Origin: a virus
Lineage: Duplodnaviria; Heunggongvirae; Uroviricota; Caudoviricetes
Virus record (IMG/VR): IMGVR_UViG_2660238269_000008
Length of the DNA: 43,719 nt
Reading direction: 5' to 3' (one strand)
The translations under genes were made by a program, and so were the position numbers. The notes under the pieces are model-generated. The model did no database searches and was not told the DNA's origin. It saw only the letters and a program-made list of their open reading frames with translations. Below, piece by piece: positions 8,843 through 24,173 of this stretch. Within the stretch, counting starts at the first letter, position 1, and each line of letters begins with the position of its first letter.

Positions 8843-9583
8843 ATGAAAAACATTACGTCAGGTGGTGTTCTGGCAAGAGTCAGCAGATTTGTGCCGCAGG
8901 ATGCAATCCCTCCGTACCGTACGGTGGCGGAGTGGCGGGAATGGCAGCTTGCTGAAGGGCGTAAGCGAAGCGAGGAGGTTAATCGTCTGAATCATCAGAC
9001 GCGGGTTGAAAAAATCATTAACCGCTCCGGTATCCAGCCGCTTCACCGGAAGTGTACGTTCGGTAACTACCGGGTGCAGAACGATGGTCAGCGCCATGCC
9101 CTGAGTCAGGCGAAATCCATTGCGGCAGAGCTGGAAGGCGGCTGTACGAATTTTGTTTTCAGTGGCAGGCCTGGCACAGGAAAAAACCACCTGGCGGCGG
9201 CTATTGGCAACCACCTTCTGGCGAAAGGTCGCAGTGTGATTGTGATAACAGTGGCGGATGTGATGCTGGCGTTACATGGCAGCTACGACAACAAAAACTC
9301 GGGCGAAAAATTTTTGCAGGGATTGTGTGGCGTTGACCTGCTGGTACTGGATGAAATTGGCATGCAACGGGATACGCGTAATGAGCAGGTCACGCTGAAT
9401 CAGATTGTTGACCGCAGAACGGCATCGTTACTCAGTGTGGGGATGCTGACAAATCTTAACCATGCAGCGATGAATACACTTCTCGGCGAGCGGGTGATGG
9501 ACCGCATGTCCATGAACGGTGGTCGCTGGGTGACGTTTAACTGGGAGAGCTGGCGTCCGAACGTCAGCCAGCACAGGAACTGA
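8843..9583 (+). CDS. DnaC/IstB-like AAA+ helicase loader (YdaV-like)
   Basis: Walker A GRPGTGKNHLAAAIG, Walker B LLVLDEIG. Confidence 0.85.
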   Translation: MKNITSGGVLARVSRFVPQDAIPPYRTVAEWREWQLAEGRKRSEEVNRLNHQTRVEKIINRSGIQPLHRKCTFGNYRVQNDGQRHALSQAKSIAAELEGGCTNFVFSGRPGTGKNHLAAAIGNHLLAKGRSVIVITVADVMLALHGSYDNKNSGEKFLQGLCGVDLLVLDEIGMQRDTRNEQVTLNQIVDRRTASLLSVGMLTNLNHAAMNTLLGERVMDRMSMNGGRWVTFNWESWRPNVSQHRN

Positions 9584-11812: not shown

Positions 11813-12144
11813 CCAGGGAGCAGTTAATAGCTCACGCAGAGGAGACTATTGAAGCACAGAGACTGTGCATACCGGGCACAATCGACCATGACATCATCCG
11901 CACATATAAGATGGATATTGCTGTTCTGGAAATCGCACTGGTATCGCTGGCAGCAGAGCCAGCCGGTAAATTGCATCAATACAAACCAGTGGGATATCAG
12001 CGTCTGGTCGATGAGTTAACCATGCTGGTAAAGCAGTTAACCTGGCAACTGAGGAAAGCGAAGCCAGACTGCAAATTACCGGATAAGGCGATGAGTTATC
12101 TGGAGCGGAACGGACTGATAAGCGTGGAGGATATTTTACGATGA
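11800..12144 (+). CDS. Hypothetical protein (114 aa)
   Basis: ORF; shares the [10 protein letters not shown] motif with the preceding small ORF. Confidence 0.5.
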
Positions 12145-12435
12145 CCTGGTCTGAAGCATTCCACAACGGTAGGAATCGCACTGGCGGTGGCGCTGGTGGT
12201 GTATTCGATTTGCCGCTGGGGATAAAAACGGTTTGCGGGAAAAGGAGAGTTAAGTAGAATTGCTGCGGGTGCTTGAGGCTGTTTGCCTCGGGCATGCCGC
12301 CGTAAGGCAGACAGAGAAAAGCCCCAGTTAACATTACGCGTCTTGCAGGACGCTTAACATTAATCTGAGGCCCAATCTATGCTTCACAAACGTAGGTTAG
12401 CCTCTTACGTGCCGAAAGGCAAGGAGAAGCAGGCT

Positions 12436-12591
12436 ATGAAGCAGCAAAAGGCGATGTTAATCGCCCTGATCGTCATCTGTTTAACCGTCATAGTGACGGC
12501 ACTGGTAACGAGGAAAGACCTCTGCGAGGTACGAATCCGAACCGGCCAGACGGAGGTTGCTGTCTTCGTAGACTACGAATCTGAGAAGTAA
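12436..12591 (+). CDS. hok: Hok/Gef-family type I toxin (HokD/RelF-like)
   Basis: MKQQKAMLIALIVICLTVIVTALVTRKDLCEVRIRTGQTEVAVFVDYESEK is near-identical to HokD/RelF as recalled; long structured leader upstream and hairpins downstream. Confidence 0.9.
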   Translation: MKQQKAMLIALIVICLTVIVTALVTRKDLCEVRIRTGQTEVAVFVDYESEK

Positions 12592-13104
12592 GAGTGACCA
12601 GGCGAGGGAGAAATCCCTCGCCACCTCTGATGTGTCAGGCATCCTCAACGCACCCCACTTAACTCGCTTCGGCGGTTTTTTGTTGTTTATTTTCGGTGAG
12701 CGTGATGCATCTGGTTGTACCGATGTGGCTGGCTGATTCTGTTATTCAGGTGGTTTATTGCTGTTGATTGGCATGTCTTCACGGCTAGAATCGAGGCTCT
12801 TAAGTAGTGCGCAGGGATAAGAGGGATGGCCCCCATAAGGGGAGGTGTTTATAGTTCATGGGATTTTTGTTATGAACGATAAGGAATTAATTGCTGCGCT
12901 TTCTATACCAGGTAATTATGAAGTAATAGTTCTTGGGAATGGTGAGTTTATCGTAATGCCATTGCCATCTGATGTTATTCTGATCAGCAAAGAATCGCAT
13001 GCGGATTCGGTCAGTTACTTCAGCATTAAAAGAGACTAGATTATAATGCTGTAGTAAAGCCAGCCTGAACAACTGGCGTCTGTCGCACCATTACGAGGAT
13101 AGTA

Positions 13105-14446: not shown

Positions 14447-14809
14447 ATGCTCATAGATTTGGTTTTACCTTACCCGCCGACGGTGAACACTTACTGGCGA
14501 CGCCGTGGCAGCACATATTTTGTATCAAAAGCCGGGGAGCGTTATCGCCGGGCAGTGGCGCTTATTGTTCGCCAGCAGCGACTGAAATTAAGCCTGTCCG
14601 GACGGCTGGCAATAAAAATTATTGCAGAGCCACCGGATAAGCGCCGCCGTGACCTGGACAATATTCTGAAAGCACCGCTGGATGCGCTGACGCACGCGGG
14701 GTTGTTAATGGACGATGAGCAGTTTGATGAAATCAATATTGTACGTGGCAAGCCAGTATCTGGTGGACGGCTGGAGATAAGAATTACAGAGGTGGGTGTG
14801 CATGAATAA
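14447..14809 (+). CDS. rusA: Holliday junction resolvase RusA
   Basis: 120 aa; DKRRRDLDNILKAPLDALT and GGRLEIRITE align with RusA RRRDLDNLQKAAFDALT ... GGRLELTITE. Confidence 0.9.
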   Translation: MLIDLVLPYPPTVNTYWRRRGSTYFVSKAGERYRRAVALIVRQQRLKLSLSGRLAIKIIAEPPDKRRRDLDNILKAPLDALTHAGLLMDDEQFDEINIVRGKPVSGGRLEIRITEVGVHE

Positions 14810-15467
14810 CCAGTATTTACAGTTTGTTCGTGAGCAACTCATGATTGCCACTGCGGATCTTAGTGGGTCGACAAAAGGCCAGCTGGAAGTCTGGCAGGAA
14901 AATGCCCTGTTCGATACAGGGCGTTACAGACGCAAAAAAATTCGTTACCGCGATGAGGTAACCGGAAAAATGATCACGCGGGATAATCCCCCGATCCCGG
15001 GTAAACAATCACTGGCGAAAGGCTCATCAATTGCCCTGGTCAGTCCGGTTGAGTTTTCGACATCATCATGGCGACGCGCCGTTCTGTCTCTTGAAGAACA
15101 TCATAAAGCCTGGCTGCTGTGGTGTTACAGCGGTAGCATTTGCTGGGAGCATCAGATCGCGATAACGCAGTGGGCGTGGACTGAATTTAATGCTCAATCC
15201 GGTACCAGAAAAATTGCAGGAAAAACTCTGGTGCGCCTGAAGACGTTGATCTGGTTGGCGGCGCAGGCGGTAAAAGCTGAGCTTTTTGGTGGGGAAGGTT
15301 ACGAATACCAGGAACTGGCGTTACTGGTGGGAGTAACAACCAAAAACTGGTCCAAGACATTTACTGGTCACTGGGTTGCAATGAAACACATTTTTCATCG
15401 GCTGGATAGTGAAGCTTTATTGTTGGTGGAGGGAACACGTTCAAAACAAAAGGCGGCATTTTCATAG
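14802..15467 (+). CDS. Q: Late-gene antiterminator Q (non-lambda Q family)
   Basis: Position between rusA and a promoter plus short-RNA terminator; 222 aa. Confidence 0.65.
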   Translation: MNNQYLQFVREQLMIATADLSGSTKGQLEVWQENALFDTGRYRRKKIRYRDEVTGKMITRDNPPIPGKQSLAKGSSIALVSPVEFSTSSWRRAVLSLEEHHKAWLLWCYSGSICWEHQIAITQWAWTEFNAQSGTRKIAGKTLVRLKTLIWLAAQAVKAELFGGEGYEYQELALLVGVTTKNWSKTFTGHWVAMKHIFHRLDSEALLLVEGTRSKQKAAFS

Positions 15468-16955: not shown

Positions 16956-18014
16956 ATGTTTAATACTGTAAAAATATCCAGTTGTGAGTTAATCAACGCC
17001 GACTGCCTGGAATTTATCCGGTCGTTACCCGAAAATTCTGTTGACCTGATAGTCACGGACCCGCCGTACTTTAAAGTGAAGCCTGAGGGCTGGGATAACC
17101 AGTGGACGGGTGATGAGGATTACCTGAAATGGCTGGACCAGTGTCTGGCGCAGTTCTGGCGGGTGCTGAAACCTGCCGGAAGTCTTTACCTGTTCTGTGG
17201 CCATCGCCTGGCATCTGATATCGAAATCATGATGCGTGAACGCTTCAGTGTGCTGAACCATATTATCTGGGCGAAGCCGTCCGGACGCTGGAACGGGTGC
17301 AACAAGGAAAGCCTGAGGGCGTATTTCCCCGCCACAGAGCGCATTCTGTTCGCGGAACATTATCAGGGGCCGTATCGTCCGAAAGATGCCGGGTATGAGG
17401 CGAAGGGCAGGGCACTGAAACAGCATGTGATGGCTCCGCTGATTGCTTACTTTCGTGATGCGCGTGCTGCCCTGGGGATAACGGCAAAACAGATAGTGGA
17501 TGCCACAGGAAAGAAAAACATGGTGTCGCACTGGTTCAGTGCCAGTCAGTGGCAGCTACCGAACGAAAGTGATTATCTGAAATTACAGGCGCTGTTTGCC
17601 CGGGTGGCAGAAGAGAAGCATCAGCGCGGTGAACTGGAAAAGCCCCACCACCAGCTGCTGGAGACGTATACTTCACTGAACCGGCAGTATGCGGAACTGC
17701 AGAGTGAATATAAGCATCTGCGGCGGTATTTTGGCGTGACGGCGCAGGTGCCATACACGGATGTGTGGACGCATAAACCGGTGCAGTACTATCCCGGGAA
17801 ACATCCGTGCGAAAAACCGGCAGAAATGCTGCAGCAGATAATCAGCGCGAGCAGTCGTCCGGGGGACCTGGTTGCAGATTTCTTCATGGGGTCGGGTTCG
17901 ACAGTCAAAGCCGCGATGGCGCTGGGGCGTCGTGCAACTGGCGTTGAGCTGGAGACTGAACGTTTTGAGCAGACGGTCAGGGAAGTACGGGATTTAGTCA
18001 GTCAGAATGGATGA
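16956..18014 (+). CDS. Orphan DNA methyltransferase (amino-MTase, beta class: DPPY motif IV precedes FxGxG motif I)
   Basis: VTDPPY near the N-terminus, DLVADFFMGSGST near the C-terminus, with a charged/coiled-coil-like segment between; no adjacent restriction endonuclease. Confidence 0.85.
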   Translation: MFNTVKISSCELINADCLEFIRSLPENSVDLIVTDPPYFKVKPEGWDNQWTGDEDYLKWLDQCLAQFWRVLKPAGSLYLFCGHRLASDIEIMMRERFSVLNHIIWAKPSGRWNGCNKESLRAYFPATERILFAEHYQGPYRPKDAGYEAKGRALKQHVMAPLIAYFRDARAALGITAKQIVDATGKKNMVSHWFSASQWQLPNESDYLKLQALFARVAEEKHQRGELEKPHHQLLETYTSLNRQYAELQSEYKHLRRYFGVTAQVPYTDVWTHKPVQYYPGKHPCEKPAEMLQQIISASSRPGDLVADFFMGSGSTVKAAMALGRRATGVELETERFEQTVREVRDLVSQNG

Positions 18015-18054
18015 TATTGCAGGATTAGTTACGTACCGTTATTATCCTGCGCCC

Positions 18055-18130
18055 GGCCCTTTAGCTCAGTGGTGAGAGCGAGCGACTCATAATCGCCAGG
18101 TCGCTGGTTCAAATCCAGCAAGGGCCACCA
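18055..18130 (+). tRNA. ileZ: tRNA with CAU anticodon (Ile2, lysidine type; ileZ-like)
   Basis: Hand-folded cloverleaf: acceptor GGCCCTT/AAGGGCC, loop CTCATAA, T-loop TTCAAAT, 3' CCA; closely resembles E. coli ileX as recalled. Confidence 0.85.
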
Positions 18131-18139
18131 TATCACATA

Positions 18140-18216
18140 CCGCCATTAGCTCATCGGGATAGAGCGCCAGCCTTCGAAGCTGGCTGCGCGGGGTTCGAGT
18201 CCTCGATGGCGGTCCA
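18140..18216 (+). tRNA. tRNA-Arg (anticodon read as UCG)
   Basis: Hand-folded cloverleaf: acceptor CCGCCAT/ATGGCGG, anticodon stem CCAGC/GCTGG, loop CTTCGAA, T-loop TTCGAGT, 3' CCA. Confidence 0.75.
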
Positions 18217-18494
18217 TTATCTGCATTATGCGTTGTTGGTTCTGATGAGTGAATCATTGTCTTTTGAGCAACAGGCTATCATATAAGATAGCCTCAGACT
18301 TCCTTGTTTATTCTCGCCGGATGCTTCGTAGATATTTGCAGGCATCTGTATGCAGGGGTATTATTGCGGCATATATCATCCGGAAAAATAAAAACTACAT
18401 GCTGATCCGGAGATGATAGTTACAAGTCCTCCCGGATCCCGCATATTTACTATATTTTATAGATAATTGTTCTTGTTAATATGGAGATGGATAA

Positions 18495-18923
18495 ATGTAT
18501 TGCCGTGCTGTACCTGTTCTTGTTTTGATATTAGCCAGTCTGACAACTGGCTGCACAAAAGATGTATCGACAAATAATCATGATGCTTCTCTGTATCACT
18601 CAGATAAATTAATAAAGTCGCAAAATTTGAGCTCATCGGAACGTACCCCTGATGCCAGTGAAGAAATCCGGCAGTATGCCATTCAGGTCAGGAAAGCCAT
18701 AGAAGAACAGTTAAAGGATGCGAGTAAGTATTCAGGAAAAGAGTGTTCACTGAGAATGTATATGGCCCCGAATGGTCTTCTGCTACAGGTTAAAAGAGAA
18801 AGCGGTGATCCCGATTTATGTCGTGAAGCGATGAATGCAGTAAAGAATGCTGATATACCATCACCACCGTCTTCAGGAGTATATAAAGCATTTAGAAATG
18901 GCGTGCTGGATTTTAAACTCTGA
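18495..18923 (+). CDS. Lipoprotein with a TolA C-terminal domain III-like fold
   Basis: Signal peptide with lipobox LTTG-C; residues 60-142 align with E. coli TolA C-terminus (YAGKTCTLRIKLAPDGMLLDIKPEGGDPALCQAA...PKPPSQAVYEVFKNAPLDFKP vs SGKECSLRMYMAPNGLLLQVKRESGDPDLCREA...PSPPSSGVYKAFRNGVLDFKL). Confidence 0.8.
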   Translation: MYCRAVPVLVLILASLTTGCTKDVSTNNHDASLYHSDKLIKSQNLSSSERTPDASEEIRQYAIQVRKAIEEQLKDASKYSGKECSLRMYMAPNGLLLQVKRESGDPDLCREAMNAVKNADIPSPPSSGVYKAFRNGVLDFKL

Positions 18924-18980
18924 CAGGGGGAGAAGATTTTCTCCTGTCCTGATGATTTTGGGGCGCTGGAAAGATATTGT

Positions 18981-19240
18981 TCTGTGAAGTGTTAAATCCC
19001 TCACAATTCAGTAAGTTGACAGTTGCCTGTCAGACTGAGCATTTGTTAAAAAAATTTCGCATGGTGAATCCCCCTGTGCGGAGGGGCGACTGGTGAACGG
19101 TATGATCTCTTTGATGATCGTAAGCGAGAATACGCGGGTTTGGTGTCACCGGGCTGAACTCACCGGGAGGCACCCGGCACCATGCTCATGGTGATACAGA
19201 AATGCGGCTTCAGCCCCTCTCCGGAGGGGCTTTCTTATGG
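18981..19240 (+). repeat. Isolated copy (U1) of the ~250-bp hairpin-rich repeat family, ending in an intrinsic terminator
   Basis: Carries the three conserved modules tgttaaat.cctcaca, catggtgaatccccctgtgcggaggggc and ctcaccgggaggcacccggcaccatg, then gcccctctccggaggggc plus T-rich tail. Confidence 0.8.
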
Positions 19241-19384
19241 ACAAAAAAAGCCCGCGCTGGGAGACGCGGGCGGCAAGGAATAAACAATAAAACGTGAAGT
19301 AATACTTCAACTGGCGAATAATACCCGACAGTAATCACTCTGCGCAATAGCGTGGCCTTTTTCGAATTGCGGGCTGTAGTCTCC

Positions 19385-19556
19385 CTTCTGCCGGGTGTCC
19401 AGGTTGCAGATTTCTTCATGGGGTAGGGTTCGGCAGTTAAAGCAGCGATGGCGCTGGGGCGTCGTGCAACTGGCGTTGAGCTGGATACCGGGCGTTTTGA
19501 ACAGACTGCGCAGGAAATCAGGGATGTATTTAGCGGGAGCGGTTTGCAGAAGTAAT
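19385..19556 (+). pseudogene. 3' remnant of a second, diverged DNA methyltransferase gene
   Basis: High by-eye identity to the 3' end of the intact MTase (17866..18014), ends at an equivalent stop, but has an in-frame TAG in place of the MTase TCG codon and no 5' part. Confidence 0.75.
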
Positions 19557-19618
19557 CTCCCAAAATGCCATTTTTGGAATATACTGGTATTAAGTCTTTT
19601 TGCTCAGGTTAATTCAAA

Positions 19619-20344
19619 ATGGATGTTGCCTGCTCTGTGGTCCTGATTCGCTATCCGATAGATATTTTTCTTGAAAAAGAAAAAGTTTCACTCGATGCCG
19701 GAAGTGTTATGCTTGTTGCCAGAAATATAAGAGGGCTTTTCTGTGCTTATGCCGACAGAGTGAAAATGGCAGATATAAGTAACAGCGTCGTCAATCAGTA
19801 TCTGGAAAGGGAGTGTGAACTGACGGAGTATACACCGACAAAAATGCCTCTTTATTTGATGTCTGATATTTACAATACGGAACTGGCGGAGGCTTTAATA
19901 ACCCAGCATAGTGAATCCAGTGATACTTTGAAGGATTTCTCTGTTATAACCGCATTTTCATGTATCTCCTTATTTGCAACAGACAGACGTCTGCCATTAT
20001 TTTTGTCCGGTGCTGTAAATAATATCAGCTGTAAAGTAAGGGCTATAATTCAGACCGACATATCGGCAGGCTGGATGCTTGGTGTGATTGCATTACAATT
20101 GCATATGAGCGAAAGCTTGTTGAAGCGAAAACTTAAGGATGAAGGTTATAGCTTTAGTCGGTTGTTGCTGGAGGAGCGAATGCGTGTTGCTGTTAATCTT
20201 GTATGTTTCCAGCGAGAGTGTGGACAAGCGATAGCGGAAAAATGTGGTTACTCAAGTAAGTCCTACTTCATTTCTGTATTTCACCAGTATTATGGTGCAC
20301 CACCTGAGAGCTATGCATATTTGCAGAAAGCAGACGTTATCTGA
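19619..20344 (+). CDS. AraC/XylS-family transcriptional regulator, AppY/EnvY/AdiY-like
   Basis: C-terminal dual HTH aligns with EnvY/AppY (..CGYSS.SYFISVF...YG..P..Y); 241 aa; AT-rich. Confidence 0.8.
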   Translation: MDVACSVVLIRYPIDIFLEKEKVSLDAGSVMLVARNIRGLFCAYADRVKMADISNSVVNQYLERECELTEYTPTKMPLYLMSDIYNTELAEALITQHSESSDTLKDFSVITAFSCISLFATDRRLPLFLSGAVNNISCKVRAIIQTDISAGWMLGVIALQLHMSESLLKRKLKDEGYSFSRLLLEERMRVAVNLVCFQRECGQAIAEKCGYSSKSYFISVFHQYYGAPPESYAYLQKADVI

Positions 20345-20433
20345 TGTTTTTTCATCAGGCATATATTGATTGACTGTATTAGATATAGTCTGAATGTGTT
20401 CAGCATAAAAAGTTATAATCATTTGGTGTTTGC

Positions 20434-20712
20434 GTGAATATTGATGAGAAAATCAGATGTAGCCAACTGTTACAGCGTATTGAAGCCGTCAATGTGGAAC
20501 GAACAAAGGTCTTCAGTCGTCTGACAGTTTTATTTTGTACCCCTGATCGACGTTCAGGTCAGGAGATGGTTCTTCTGGATGTAGATGCACTTCGGAACGT
20601 CTGTGAGGAGTTCACCGCGGCTAATTCGGAGTTACTGAGTCTTGTTCAGGAGTACAACAGAATTGCAGGTAGTAACGGTTTTGATGAAATCAAAATTATA
20701 TCCCGTGGATAA
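20434..20712 (+). CDS. Small hypothetical protein (92 aa) downstream of the AraC-like regulator
   Basis: ORF with GTG start; same strand as the regulator. Confidence 0.4.
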   Translation: MNIDEKIRCSQLLQRIEAVNVERTKVFSRLTVLFCTPDRRSGQEMVLLDVDALRNVCEEFTAANSELLSLVQEYNRIAGSNGFDEIKIISRG

Positions 20713-20954
20713 AACATATCCTGTATATTTATGTTGTTACATACAGGCGCTTTTAGTATCTGCCGCACGGCAGTTGTACTTCAGAATAAGATGCTTTTGT
20801 GACTGGTGGTGTTGTATCTGGGGTTAGCCAGTAGGCAGGTTCAGAGAGTCCGGTGGTAATTATGTGTATGCAGTGGTTGTTGCTGTACCGTGGGCAAGTT
20901 CTGGAACTGGCTTCGTCCATTGTAGATGATTGTTAGCTGGATATCAGTTACCTC

Positions 20955-21980
20955 ATGGAAATGTTAAATGACTCACAATTCGGTTGATGGGCTATTGTCT
21001 GATCGATGGAAGTCTTGTAAAAACGAGCCAGCATAGTGAATCCCCCTGTGCGGAGGGGCGTCTGACATGGTCTCCATAGCGATGGTCACAATACGCAGAT
21101 TCAGTAGTCAGGCTGAATCTACCGGGAGGCACCCGGCACTATGCTGCTTATGGTGTATACATAGCGATCGGCCCCTCTCCGGAGGGGCTTTTTTTGTGCG
21201 GGAAAAGGCTGTGTTGTTAAGTGTTAAATTCCTCACAGTTCAGATGGTTGATGCTTGCCTGTCTGAGGGGGAGTTGTTAAAAAAGTTCTGCATGGTGAAT
21301 CCCCCTGTGCGGAGGGGCGACTGGTGTGATTTGCATCTTTTCTGTTGTAGGCAATGCAAACGCGGGTTCAGGGACACCAGACTGGACTCACCGGGAGGCA
21401 CCCGGCACCATGTTCATGATGATACAGATACGCAGTGTCAGCCCCTCTCCTGAGGGGCTTTTTTATGCAGGAAAAACGCTGTGTTGTGAAATGTTAAATT
21501 CCTCACAGTTCAGATGGTTGATGCTTGCCTGTCTTACGGGGAGTTGTTAAAAAAGTTCTGCATGGTGAATCCCCCTGAGCGGAGGGGCATATCAGCGCAG
21601 GTGTTTCTACTCTATCCTTTCTGTGCGGGTTCAGGTGCTGATACTGAACTCACCGGGAGGCACCCGGCATCATGCATATGGTTAACAGACACGTAGCGAA
21701 GCCCCTCTCCGGAGGGGCTTTTTTATGCAGGGAAAAGGCTGTGTTGTGAAATGTTAAATTCCTCACAATTCATGAGGTTGATGATTGTCTGATTGATGAG
21801 GAGTTTGTTAAAAAAAACGGGCATGGTGAATCCCCCTGTGCGGAGGGGTGATATCGTATCATTTCCTGTGTGGCCGACTGATATCACGGACATTTGTTCA
21901 CCGGGAGGCACCCGGCACCATGCAGTATACAGAGATTAGGCATACATCCAGGCTCCTCATCGCAGGAGCCTTTTTACATG
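20955..21980 (+). repeat. Tandem array of four ~250-bp units (U2-U5) of the hairpin-rich repeat family; candidate structured ncRNA genes
   Basis: Units at about 20955-21196, 21205-21465, 21481-21726, 21741-21980; same conserved modules in each; variable segments keep self-complementarity; each unit ends in a terminator hairpin plus T-run. Confidence 0.8.
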
Positions 21981-22208
21981 TAAAAAAAAACCGCTCCTGG
22001 GAAGAGCGGTTGGCAAGGAAGCAAGGAATAAATAACAAAACGTGAAGTAATTTATTCAGCACCCTAATAATACCTTAGAGTAATCACCTTGCGCAACTGT
22101 AAGGGCGTATTTCTTTTTTGCGGGCTGTTTTTCTGTGTGACTTTTGTGTTTCCGGAGGTCAGCCCGTGCCTTCTCTGACTCAGAACATTATCCCGGCCGG
22201 GAGGATTC

Positions 22209-24173
22209 ATGGCATTTAAACACTACGATGTGGTCAGGGCGGCATCGCCGTCAGACCTTGCTGAACGACTGACACAAAAACTGAAGGAGGGCTGGCAGCC
22301 ATTTGGCAGTCCGGTGGCCATCACGCCTTATACCCTGATGCAGGCCATTGCGGCGGAAGGTGATGTCACCACACCAGTGGCGGTGACCGGTAATGAGGGT
22401 AAGGCGGTGGCTGTCAGTGCCACCAGCGACCCGGAGTATTACTTTGTTGTGGTTCTGGCAGGGCAGTCAAATGGCATGTCGTATGGTGAAGGTCTTCCGC
22501 TGCCGGAGACATATGACCGTCCGGACCCGCGTATTAAGCAGCTGGCGCGCCGCAGTACGGTGACACCGGGCGGTGTCGCCTGTAAATATAACGACATCAT
22601 TCCGGCGGACCATTGTCTGCATGATGTGCAGGACATGAGCCGTCTTAACCATCCGAAAGCGGACCTGTCAAAAGGGCAGTACGGAACCGTGGGGCAGGGG
22701 CTGCATATCGCCAAAAAACTGCTGCCGTTTATACCGGCGAATGCGGGTATTCTGCTGGTTCCGTGCTGTCGTGGTGGTTCAGCGTTCACCACCGGAGCTG
22801 ATGGCACATACAGTGACGCTGGCGGTGCCTCGGAGAATTCAGCGCGCTGGGGTGTGGACAAGCCGCTGTATAAGGACCTTATCGGTCGAACAAAAGCAGC
22901 ACTGAAGAAGAACCCGAAAAATGTGCTGTTTACCGTGGTGTGGATGCAGGGGGAATTTGATTTTGACGGCACGCCCGGAAATCACGCAGCACAGTTTGGT
23001 GCGCTGGTTGATAAATTCCGTGCAGACCTGGCGGATATGGCAGGCCAGTGCGTCAGTGGCTCTGCTGGCAGTGTTCCCTGGATATGCGGGGACACGACGT
23101 ATTTCTGGAAGCAGAAGAACGAATCCACGTACCAGACGGTGTACGGCAGCTATAAAAACAAAACGGAAAAGAATATCCATTTCGTACCGTTCATGACGGA
23201 TGAGAACGGGGTGAATGTGCCGACGAACAAACCGGAAGAAGACCCGGACATTCCGGGTATCGGGTATTACGGTTCGAAATGGCGTGACAGCTCAGCCACC
23301 TGGACGTCACAGGACAGGGCGAGCCATTTCAGCACCTGGGCACGCCGGGGGATTATTTCCGACCGTCTGGCAACGGCGATTCTGGTGCACGCCGGGAGAA
23401 CCGCTGAATTCATTACCGGAAAACAGCCTGATATGGTGAAGCCCACCGTACCTTCCGGTGAAGGTCCGGAGAGAGAGGCGGAAGCCCCGGTCAGTAACCG
23501 AACCCTGATGAGTCTGCTGGCATCCGGCGAAGACCTGGCATCACAGGGCTGGCGCTATTATCACAAACCGGCGGGCGGAGACAGTGTTAACAAAAACATT
23601 GCTGAAGCGGTGGTCAGTGATGCGGGGGCTACGGGAGGTAAGGCTCTGCAACTGAACAAACCGGAAAACCACATCTGGTTTCTGGAGCATGATGCAGCCG
23701 GACAGGGTGCGGAGTTACTGAAGAAGGGCGGACGTGTGAGCGTACGGTTTAAGTTGCCGGGTTCACTGGTGCCGAATCAGTTTGCCCTGGGCATTTACTG
23801 GCAGTTGTCGTCCCTGCCGGAGGGGGTGACGCTGTCAGGAGAAGGTAACGATATGCTGATGTCCTTCTTCCTGCAGACGGATACGACGAACCTGAACGCG
23901 ATGCATCACAGGAAGCCGAATGCGAAGCTGGATACATTCGGGGTCTTTGATAACGGATGGCACACGCTGGCTTTTGAGTTTGCCGGAAACAACAGCATTC
24001 AGGTGACACCTGTACTGGATGAGAAACGGGGAGCGGCGTTCACACTGGTGAAGTCACCGGCATCGGGGGCGGCGGACAAACTGCAACTGACCGATATATC
24101 AAAATCGGCGACGTATACGCTGCTGATTGACAGCATTGCGGTGGAAGTGAACAGCACAGACACTGCGGCATGA
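22209..24173 (+). CDS. nanS-p: Prophage 9-O-acetyl-sialate esterase NanS-p (SGNH/SASA esterase)
   Basis: 654 aa; GQSNGMSYG esterase motif; size and position (immediately upstream of the lysis cassette) match the NanS-p genes that follow stx in Stx phages. Confidence 0.75.
   Translation: MAFKHYDVVRAASPSDLAERLTQKLKEGWQPFGSPVAITPYTLMQAIAAEGDVTTPVAVTGNEGKAVAVSATSDPEYYFVVVLAGQSNGMSYGEGLPLPETYDRPDPRIKQLARRSTVTPGGVACKYNDIIPADHCLHDVQDMSRLNHPKADLSKGQYGTVGQGLHIAKKLLPFIPANAGILLVPCCRGGSAFTTGADGTYSDAGGASENSARWGVDKPLYKDLIGRTKAALKKNPKNVLFTVVWMQGEFDFDGTPGNHAAQFGALVDKFRADLADMAGQCVSGSAGSVPWICGDTTYFWKQKNESTYQTVYGSYKNKTEKNIHFVPFMTDENGVNVPTNKPEEDPDIPGIGYYGSKWRDSSATWTSQDRASHFSTWARRGIISDRLATAILVHAGRTAEFITGKQPDMVKPTVPSGEGPEREAEAPVSNRTLMSLLASGEDLASQGWRYYHKPAGGDSVNKNIAEAVVSDAGATGGKALQLNKPENHIWFLEHDAAGQGAELLKKGGRVSVRFKLPGSLVPNQFALGIYWQLSSLPEGVTLSGEGNDMLMSFFLQTDTTNLNAMHHRKPNAKLDTFGVFDNGWHTLAFEFAGNNSIQVTPVLDEKRGAAFTLVKSPASGAADKLQLTDISKSATYTLLIDSIAVEVNSTDTAA

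Follow-up and report, generated by a model that had tools for sequence, protein, structure and literature searches.

The subject of this analysis is a hok/sok-type locus in the virus record IMGVR_UViG_2660238269_000008 of IMG/VR (Caudoviricetes; 43,719 nucleotides (nt), hereafter the window, i.e., the whole stretch of DNA at its full length). The locus very probably represents a complete hok/mok/sok type I toxin–antitoxin module of the hokW–sokW allele, residing in the nin region of a lambdoid prophage. The module belongs to a thoroughly described family, and its toxin protein is identical to an experimentally characterized one; in this sense, the system is already known.

Judging by its gene content, the window is a lambdoid prophage. 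The annotation was referred to the RefSeq sequence NZ_CP027366.1 (positions 1336061–1379779; Escherichia coli 89-3156), which is 100% identical over the hok region and whose annotated features coincide with the open reading frames (ORFs) of the window. According to this annotation, the integrase gene (777–1895) and the replication genes (7883–9583) precede Q (14802–15467), which is followed by the lysis, head, and tail genes; the prophage looks complete from int to the tail gene J. The hok/sok locus shares its strand with the replication genes and Q and is situated between them, that is, in the nin region, where a preliminary description made from the sequence alone had placed it. The same description held that, unlike the case of hokD in the Qin prophage of K-12, no relBE lies upstream. 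Indeed, profile searches of the upstream ORFs against Pfam and NCBIfam returned no match, RelB and RelE included, and RefSeq lists only hypothetical proteins there, whereas in K-12 relB–relE abut hokD. With a full leader and no RelB/RelE domain upstream, the locus is not a relBE–hokD operon.

For comparison, one genome per species was scanned for hok, yielding 47 loci from Escherichia, Shigella, Kluyvera, Citrobacter, Pantoea, Photorhabdus, Erwinia, and others. The alignment referred to below comprises 34 distinct full-length loci from eight named genera, including those of 933W, Rac-SA53, and PPompW and an R1-type plasmid copy. The genes of the locus and their expression signals are as follows:

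12233–12260, + strand: hok promoter (−35 TTGCGG at 12233–12238, 16-nt spacer, −10 TAGAAT at 12255–12260), 6 nt before the mRNA start; identical in 933W
12267–12683, + strand: predicted full-length hok (mok–hok) mRNA, about 417 nt; 5′ end placed from the start of the Rfam model and the conserved GGGTGCTTGAGG
12367–12370, + strand: mok Shine–Dalgarno (SD) sequence GAGG, 8 nt before the ATG at 12379; GAGG also stands ahead of the mok ATG in other loci
12379–12591, + strand: mok reading frame, 70 codons, in frame with hok, with the 19-codon N-terminal extension MLHKRRLASYVPKGKEKQA; annotated as mokW in 933W
12421–12426, + strand: hok SD sequence AAGGAG, 9 nt before the ATG at 12436; kept in all aligned loci
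12436–12591, + strand: hok toxin gene, 51 amino acids (aa), Pfam HOK_GEF; in RefSeq WP_000813258.1, “Hok/Gef family protein”, gene hokD

The ORF at 12436–12591, taken for hok from the outset, encodes a 51-aa protein matching the entire 42-position model of Pfam PF01848 (HOK_GEF; E = 4.3e-23, 81.1 bits at a cut-off of 22). Its closest characterized relative in the phage collection is hokW of 933W (AF125520). The hok genes of the two differ at three positions, all of them synonymous, and hence the toxin of the window equals HokW, the 51-aa toxin of the hokW–mokW–sokW locus of 933W/Sp5. The in-frame upstream extension from 12379, suspected earlier to be a mok-like frame, turned out to be a 70-aa ORF with its own GAGG. 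Of the 34 loci, 28 have the same layout, with GAGG ahead of a mok that extends hok in frame by 19 codons, and six have mok out of frame; the expectation of an out-of-frame mok, based on R1, was rejected, the in-frame state being commoner.

A −10-like hexamer (TAGAAT, TAGGAT, TAAGAT, TACAAT, or TATAAT) is found in the other loci at an equal distance from a conserved GGG start, and we infer that the hok mRNA of the window starts at 12267. A search for the Rfam hok and sok families, recommended earlier, retrieved RF01794 (“sok”) at 12267–12441 on the + strand, with 115.8 bits (gathering threshold 59), E = 8e-26 for the whole window, and the model covered completely (positions 1–157). Both the + strand orientation of the match and the end of the model consensus, which falls in the hok SD and AUG, show that this family models the hok mRNA leader, and reading the match as a sense small RNA (sRNA) was rejected. 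At the sequence level, the match proves a conserved leader; for the Sok template on the other strand it speaks only indirectly. Of the “~250-nt structured leader” proposed in the preliminary description, the structured part stood: a conserved leader structure, whose lack had been named as a sign of decay, is present according to both the Rfam match and covariation over the 34 loci. The length had to be revised, since with a conserved mRNA 5′ end at 12267 the leader measures 169 nt. The preceding segment, 12141–12266, comprises the hok promoter plus an unrelated small-ORF segment.

The antisense strand opposite the leader carries the following predicted elements, listed together with a hairpin extension shared by the two strands:

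12387 → 12317, − strand: Sok antisense RNA (predicted), 71 nt, consisting of a 14-nt single-stranded 5′ tail, a long hairpin, and UUUU
12394–12422, − strand: Sok promoter (−35 TTGCCT at 12422–12417, 17-nt spacer, −10 TAACCT at 12399–12394), 6 nt before the Sok +1
12337–12357, + strand: the 21 nt by which the Sok/target hairpin exceeds that of short-hairpin loci

The coordinates of Sok were transferred from the sokW misc_RNA of AF125520 via the alignment of the window with 933W. The predicted RNA spans the mok SD and the mok AUG and folds with −28.1 kcal/mol (z = −4.1). Its promoter is identical to that of 933W/Sp5, and the TAnnnT −10 and TTGnnn −35 patterns are kept across the alignment, R1 type included. 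At the sequence level, the proposed search for a minus-strand promoter and terminator at about 12300–12400 found both, i.e., TTGCCT-17-TAACCT at 12422–12394 and a hairpin with UUUU at the Sok end; the antisense Sok anticipated opposite the leader has a likely template at 12317–12422, positioned after 933W sokW. The primers printed by Takada et al. 2021 match the window sequence, and their “pro-less” construct alters exactly the TAACCT −10 region (PMC8621323); this mutation of the sokW −10 in Sp5 abolished the protection, i.e., the antitoxin activity (PMC8621323). The 21-nt extension is present in 933W, Rac-SA53, Kluyvera, and other loci and absent from PPompW, the hokC-type, and Photorhabdus loci; where present, it shows compensatory changes (e.g., GCGTC/GACGC vs. 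ACGTC/GACGT in the locus L029).

The expectation that the locus matches the architecture of hok mRNA was borne out element by element: hok promoter, tac, ucb, mok SD, mok, dcb, hok SD, 3′ hairpin, and fbi are all present. The elements which are likely involved in the folding of the mRNA, assigned with the aid of minimum free energy (MFE) structures, are listed below:

12267–12278, + strand: tac (translational activator element) GGGTGCTTGAGG, paired with 12643–12655 in the full-length MFE structure
12279–12314, + strand: leader 5′ stem-loop from MFE folds; helix 2 of the alignment, 92% paired, three pairs changed on both sides
12319–12325, + strand: ucb/anti-SD AAGCCCC, paired with the mok SD region in the full-length MFE structure; role taken from the R1 model
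12400–12404, + strand: dcb GCCTC, inside a GCCTCTT core invariant in the 34 loci
12601–12622, + strand: 3′ stem-loop GGCGAGGGAGAAATCCCTCGCC, −19.7 kcal/mol; helix 20 of the alignment, 95% paired, three pairs changed on both sides
12643–12655, + strand: fbi (fold-back inhibitory element) CCTCAACGCACCC, paired with tac, with one bulged C at 12649
12664–12683, + strand: intrinsic-terminator-like hairpin UCGC-UUCG-GCGG with a run of six T, weak (−4.7 kcal/mol)

The full-length RNA (12267–12684) has an MFE of −168.2 kcal/mol (z = −6.4 vs. 100 shuffles). In this structure, the mRNA is closed by the tac/fbi duplex (−19.8 kcal/mol in the window vs. −10.3 ± 2.6 kcal/mol for shuffled sequences), and the mok SD GAGG at 12367–12370 is paired with GCCCC of ucb (12321–12325). 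Upon removal of fbi (12267–12626), the predicted 5′ end forms a local hairpin (12269–12279/12285–12295) matching the “metastable” hairpin of R1. Enforcing three tac/ucb pairs in the truncated RNA costs 2.4 kcal/mol above the MFE and gives the R1-type open form, in which a tac/ucb stem is accompanied by a target hairpin pairing the mok SD with dcb (GAGGC at 12367–12371 with GCCUC at 12400–12404). The loop of the target hairpin, CUUCACAAA, contains the YUNR motif UUCA and is complementary to the 5′ tail of Sok. By analogy with R1, the 3′ stem-loop would terminate the truncated active mRNA and shield it from exonucleases. Of the two “strong hairpins” reported earlier after hok, this one deserves the name; the other, a terminator-like hairpin with a T-run, is present, its strength being overrated. 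It is built of three G–C pairs and one G–U pair, in contrast to the K-12/PPompW version CCCGC-TTCG-GCGGG (−11.8 kcal/mol). From the 3′ hairpin over fbi to the terminator (12602–12681, + strand), there is a sub-threshold resemblance to IsrK, an sRNA of Salmonella prophages (20.9 bits, E = 0.05; gathering threshold 50), which probably reflects a mere hairpin-plus-terminator shape.

The MFE structure of the window was projected on the alignment of the 34 loci, with slid partners and shuffles as controls. In this projection, 83.3% of the cells are paired vs. 39–44% with slid partners, 36 pairs are changed on both sides vs. a shuffled mean of 24.4, and the covariation score amounts to 0.146 vs. 0.108, a value as high as the observed one being reached in none of 500 shuffles. 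The tac/fbi helix is 90% paired and its column pair 4/425 covaries (UA in 20 loci, CG in 12). After a register correction by one column, the tac/fbi duplex is found in all 34 loci with −16 to −26 kcal/mol vs. about −9 kcal/mol for shuffled sequences; at most 2 of 200 shuffles were as good in each locus. The GCCCC/GAGGC pairs of ucb and the mok SD are nearly invariant. The helix 12321–12371, shared by the leader and Sok, includes six double-changed pairs and no G–U variants among its 19 pairs, whereas the other helices of hok mRNA vary freely via G–U. Since this helix varies only by Watson–Crick double changes, a constraint acting on both strands is suggested, i.e., the helix appears to be needed both in the leader and in Sok. 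Overall, the alignment re-confirms the classic tac/fbi folding model.

A further signature of constraint at the RNA level resides in the coding part of the transcript:

12573–12579, + strand: CUACGAA loop, putative site of A-to-I recoding by TadA (Tyr → Cys) at the Tyr47 codon TAC (12574–12576)

The sequence TACGAA (12574–12579, encoding Tyr47–Glu48) is invariant in 34 of 34 loci, including both third codon positions. In the MFE structure of the window, CUACGAA forms a 7-nt loop closed by a UAGA/UCUG stem, and the stem flanking TACGAA covaries in the alignment (CG 17/UA 14 and GC 21/AU 10). The mRNAs of hokC, hokD, and hokE have been reported to be edited at the equivalent codon, with Tyr converted to Cys (PMC12214031). 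At the sequence level, the window displays the features of the TadA-edited hok genes, that is, UACG in a tRNA-Arg-like loop at the Tyr codon equivalent to C46 of HokB; TadA may convert the Tyr47 codon to one read as Cys. The invariant TACGAA and the Watson–Crick-only Sok helix could aid the annotation of other copies of the module.

Based on homology with hok/sok of plasmid R1 and hokW–sokW of Sp5, the following operation of the module can be envisaged. The weak promoter at 12233–12260 would give rise to a stable mRNA of about 417 nt, in which the 5′ tac pairs with the 3′ fbi. In this closed form, the mok SD would be hidden against ucb, so neither ribosomes nor Sok could act. Slow exonucleolytic trimming from the 3′ end up to the hairpin at 12601–12622 would remove fbi; the 5′ end would then refold (tac/ucb plus mok SD/dcb), making mok translatable and hok translated by coupling. 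These roles of tac/ucb, the metastable hairpin, and 3′ processing follow the R1 folding model (PMC9841398). As long as the cell contains and transcribes the prophage DNA, Sok (12387 → 12317), an unstable RNA of 71 nt, would be supplied from TTGCCT-17-TAACCT, pair over the mok SD and AUG, block translation, and trigger cleavage by RNase III. Once the supply of Sok ends, the stored mRNA would yield the 51-aa Hok, possibly with Tyr47 recoded to Cys by TadA, and its insertion into the inner membrane would stop growth or lyse the cell.

By analogy with Sp5, the main role of the module is most likely aiding lysis and phage release on induction, with prophage retention as the second possibility. HokW is toxic, and sokW neutralizes it from its own promoter, partly via RNase III and Hfq (PMC8621323). 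After RecA-dependent induction of Sp5, sokW vanishes, and HokW turns up in the inner membrane (PMC8621323); deletion of the locus halves the phage yield and does not affect growth without induction (PMC8621323). Certain observations weigh against this overall explanation of the locus. The start site, the 3′ processing, and the Sok transcription of the window allele are deduced; the hok and Sok promoters both fall under the threshold of a consensus scan, the terminator is weak (−4.7 kcal/mol), and Hok scores below the cut-off of the curated NCBIfam Hok subfamily (53.6 bits vs. 73). The unconstrained MFE structure of the truncated RNA retains the 5′ metastable hairpin instead of the tac/ucb stem, and the computed accessibility of the mok SD is no higher after truncation; on this modeling, thermodynamic prediction alone does not choose between the metastable-hairpin and open forms of the truncated RNA. 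Chromosomal hokA, hokB, and hokC could not mediate post-segregational killing (according to a cited summary). Finally, since the locus occupies a genome position different from that of 933W hokW, the Sp5 phenotype may not transfer.

The same machinery could serve mainly prophage retention or anti-phage abortive infection, the loss of Sok killing the cells that lose the prophage or are shut off by a lytic phage. The mechanism responds to any transcription stop, R1 hok/sok stabilizes plasmids and reduces T4 plating by 42% (PMC8621323, discussion), and the literature reports a roughly four-fold enrichment of hok genes in prophages (23% vs. 5% expected). We regard this alternative as possible, yet on the unlikely side: the sole direct test, made with an identical toxin in a near-identical locus, showed that deletion leaves the growth of uninduced cells unaffected and that the locus favors phage release (PMC8621323), and hok was not found to be enriched near defense systems (literature); nothing in the sequence separates the roles. 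It seems very unlikely that hok is mainly a passenger of the early rightward (pR) operon, with sok, tac, and fbi irrelevant, in the manner of hokD as the third gene of relBEF in Qin. Such a view would agree with the co-orientation of the locus with the replication genes and Q between which it lies, with the start of its 933W homology at an ATGA stop/start overlap with the upstream gene, and with K-12 hokD, which follows relE and keeps only its SD. At the same time, the own promoter, tac, fbi, mok, and the Sok promoter are retained under evident purifying and compensatory constraint, and the same cassette works at a quite different genomic position in 933W/Sp5. Likewise very unlikely, in our opinion, is a silent or decaying relic, which no longer kills or is no longer regulated, like most chromosomal hok loci of K-12. 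The failure of hokA, hokB, and hokC in post-segregational killing, the loss of the whole leader by K-12 hokD, the decay or interruption of the loci L012, L020, and L045, the degradation of the terminator vs. its K-12/PPompW form, and the frameshift in the small upstream ORF shared with 933W could all be read this way. Against it, the regulatory elements are all intact and covary with those of the family, the two promoters and Hok itself do not differ from their counterparts in the functional Sp5/933W allele, the changes in the hok coding sequence are only synonymous, and the prophage around it looks complete from int to J. In this seemingly complete lambdoid prophage of a pathogenic-type E. 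coli, the module is likely an active killer.

With aid to lysis on induction as the preferred role, a question left open by Takada et al. 2021 is what causes the loss of Sok and the appearance of Hok on induction (PMC8621323). A speculative and rather improbable answer, suggested by the nin-region position of the window copy and its co-orientation with the pR operon, is that induction itself fires the module, N-antitermination letting pR transcription read through into it at about 12141, both by head-on collision with the Sok promoter and by producing 5′-extended hok RNAs unable to form the tac/fbi pairing. If true, the read-through would constitute a simple mechanism in cis for Sok loss and Hok appearance after RecA-dependent induction, and would explain the start of the cassette at the ATGA overlap with the upstream gene. 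In 933W/Sp5, the copy giving this phenotype occupies another place in the genome. The module may affect the timing of lysis on induction; beyond annotation, it matters little. In this respect, RefSeq names the gene “hokD” and gives no annotation for mok or Sok, while the locus is actually a full hokW–sokW-type module, unlike the leaderless hokD of K-12.

Several candidates within and around the locus were not retained. A consensus promoter/terminator scan of 12050–12850 called none of the hok/sok functional elements, the terminator-like hairpin included. It did call TTAACA-18-TATGCT (12354–12383), which lies within the leader, outside the hok/sok architecture, and probably arose by chance, and TTGATT-16-TAGAAT (12764–12791, + strand), which is likewise outside this architecture and stands ahead of a 55-aa hypothetical ORF (12872–13039); the segment at about 12800–12825 is homologous to the hokD–rem intergenic region of K-12 Qin. 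The extras of a permissive Rfam search (isrK and two snoRNA families) were all sub-threshold and treated as chance. The 38-aa ORF 12141–12257 was rejected both as part of the leader and as a real gene: it lies upstream of the conserved mRNA start and is frameshifted relative to 933W. This small ORF (+ strand) begins in the ATGA overlap with the stop of the upstream gene. Its 933W counterpart (L002, 1412–1495) codes for MTWPEAFANVGTVMAVVLVVYSICRWR, a hydrophobic peptide of 27 aa. The window has one C more, at 12161, and is frameshifted from there: translation from the ATG would give 38 aa without hydrophobic character, and the hydrophobic tail lies startless in another frame.

Five of the scanned loci (L012, L013, L020, L032, and L045) are visibly decayed or leaderless. 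In L013 and L032 (E. coli and Kluyvera), the leader is swapped for relBE, which thus occurs also in a Kluyvera genome. The other copies (L020, L012, and L045) show a 3′ interruption with the loss of fbi, a mutated tac, or a leader swapped for unrelated DNA.

Elsewhere in the prophage, a tRNA-Ile and tRNA-Arg pair (18055–18216) is situated downstream of Q and a DNA methyltransferase gene, at the place that tRNAs and stx occupy in Stx phages. RefSeq shows no stx there; the interval 16956–24173 harbors instead a TolA-like ORF, a methyltransferase pseudogene, a helix-turn-helix gene, an STnc100 array, and an esterase gene. STnc100 (RF02076) is represented by five full-length copies (119–172 bits, + strand) at 19030–19242, 21002–21197, 21261–21470, 21532–21730, and 21792–21981, the last four forming a head-to-tail array with a period of about 260–270 nt just upstream of the SASA-family esterase gene (22209–24173). 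A 2026 preprint tied STnc100/PasD sRNAs to esterase genes, though the copies described there are dispersed, not tandem.

Among the known systems, the closest is hokW–mokW–sokW of 933W/Sp5. Over 12141–12655 of the window, 475 of 517 aligned positions (92%) are identical; this homology starts at the ATGA stop/start overlap (12141) and ends at the last base of fbi (12655). The 933W record lists hokW, an in-frame mokW of 70 aa, and an antisense sokW of 71 nt, and the same layout is seen in the window. The hok promoter, the Sok promoter, and fbi are identical, and the long Sok hairpin is common to both. The differences include seven positions inside Sok, three of them in the 14-nt recognition tail (12378, 12384, and 12385), and compensatory changes in the 5′ hairpin (e.g., G–C to A–U at 12281/12312). 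Past fbi, the window continues with a K-12/PPompW-type flank and a weak terminator. In 933W, the cassette lies past the tail-fiber genes, at the extreme right of the genome, whereas the window copy resides in the nin region, co-oriented with the early rightward genes. There, it precedes the DUF968 gene and Q, as it does in Rac-SA53, PPompW, and Qin, and its homology with PPompW, which starts at the hok −35, and with K-12, which starts only at the hok SD, continues past the terminator.

The order of elements in the R1/F-type hok/sok (parB) is the same: tac, 5′ hairpin, ucb, target hairpin, mok SD, mok, dcb (GCCTCTTAC), hok, 3′ hairpin, and fbi. The layout of the Sok promoter is shared as well (TTGCGC-17-TATCCT in R1 vs. 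TTGCCT-17-TAACCT in the window), and the tac/fbi pairing is kept. However, R1 Hok and HokW are only ~44% identical (PMC8621323), and the R1 system is plasmid-borne, whereas the window copy is prophage-borne and has one bulged C in the fbi helix. The Sok hairpin of the window is 21 nt longer than those of the short-hairpin loci (hokC type, PPompW, and Photorhabdus). With hokD (relF) of K-12 Qin, the locus shares its syntenic place (hok, small ORFs, the DUF968 gene ydfU, and Q), a Hok protein 92% identical, and the same 3′ hairpin, fbi, and terminator region. Upstream of the hok SD there is no homology: in Qin, relB–relE take the place of the promoter, tac, ucb, mok, and sok. The hokC (gef)/mokC/sokC locus resembles that of the window in the in-frame 19-codon mok, the GAGG mok SD, the tac/fbi pairing, and the TACGAA context; it differs by its ~74–80% identity, short Sok hairpin, better Sok −35 (TTGACC), and location in the core chromosome.

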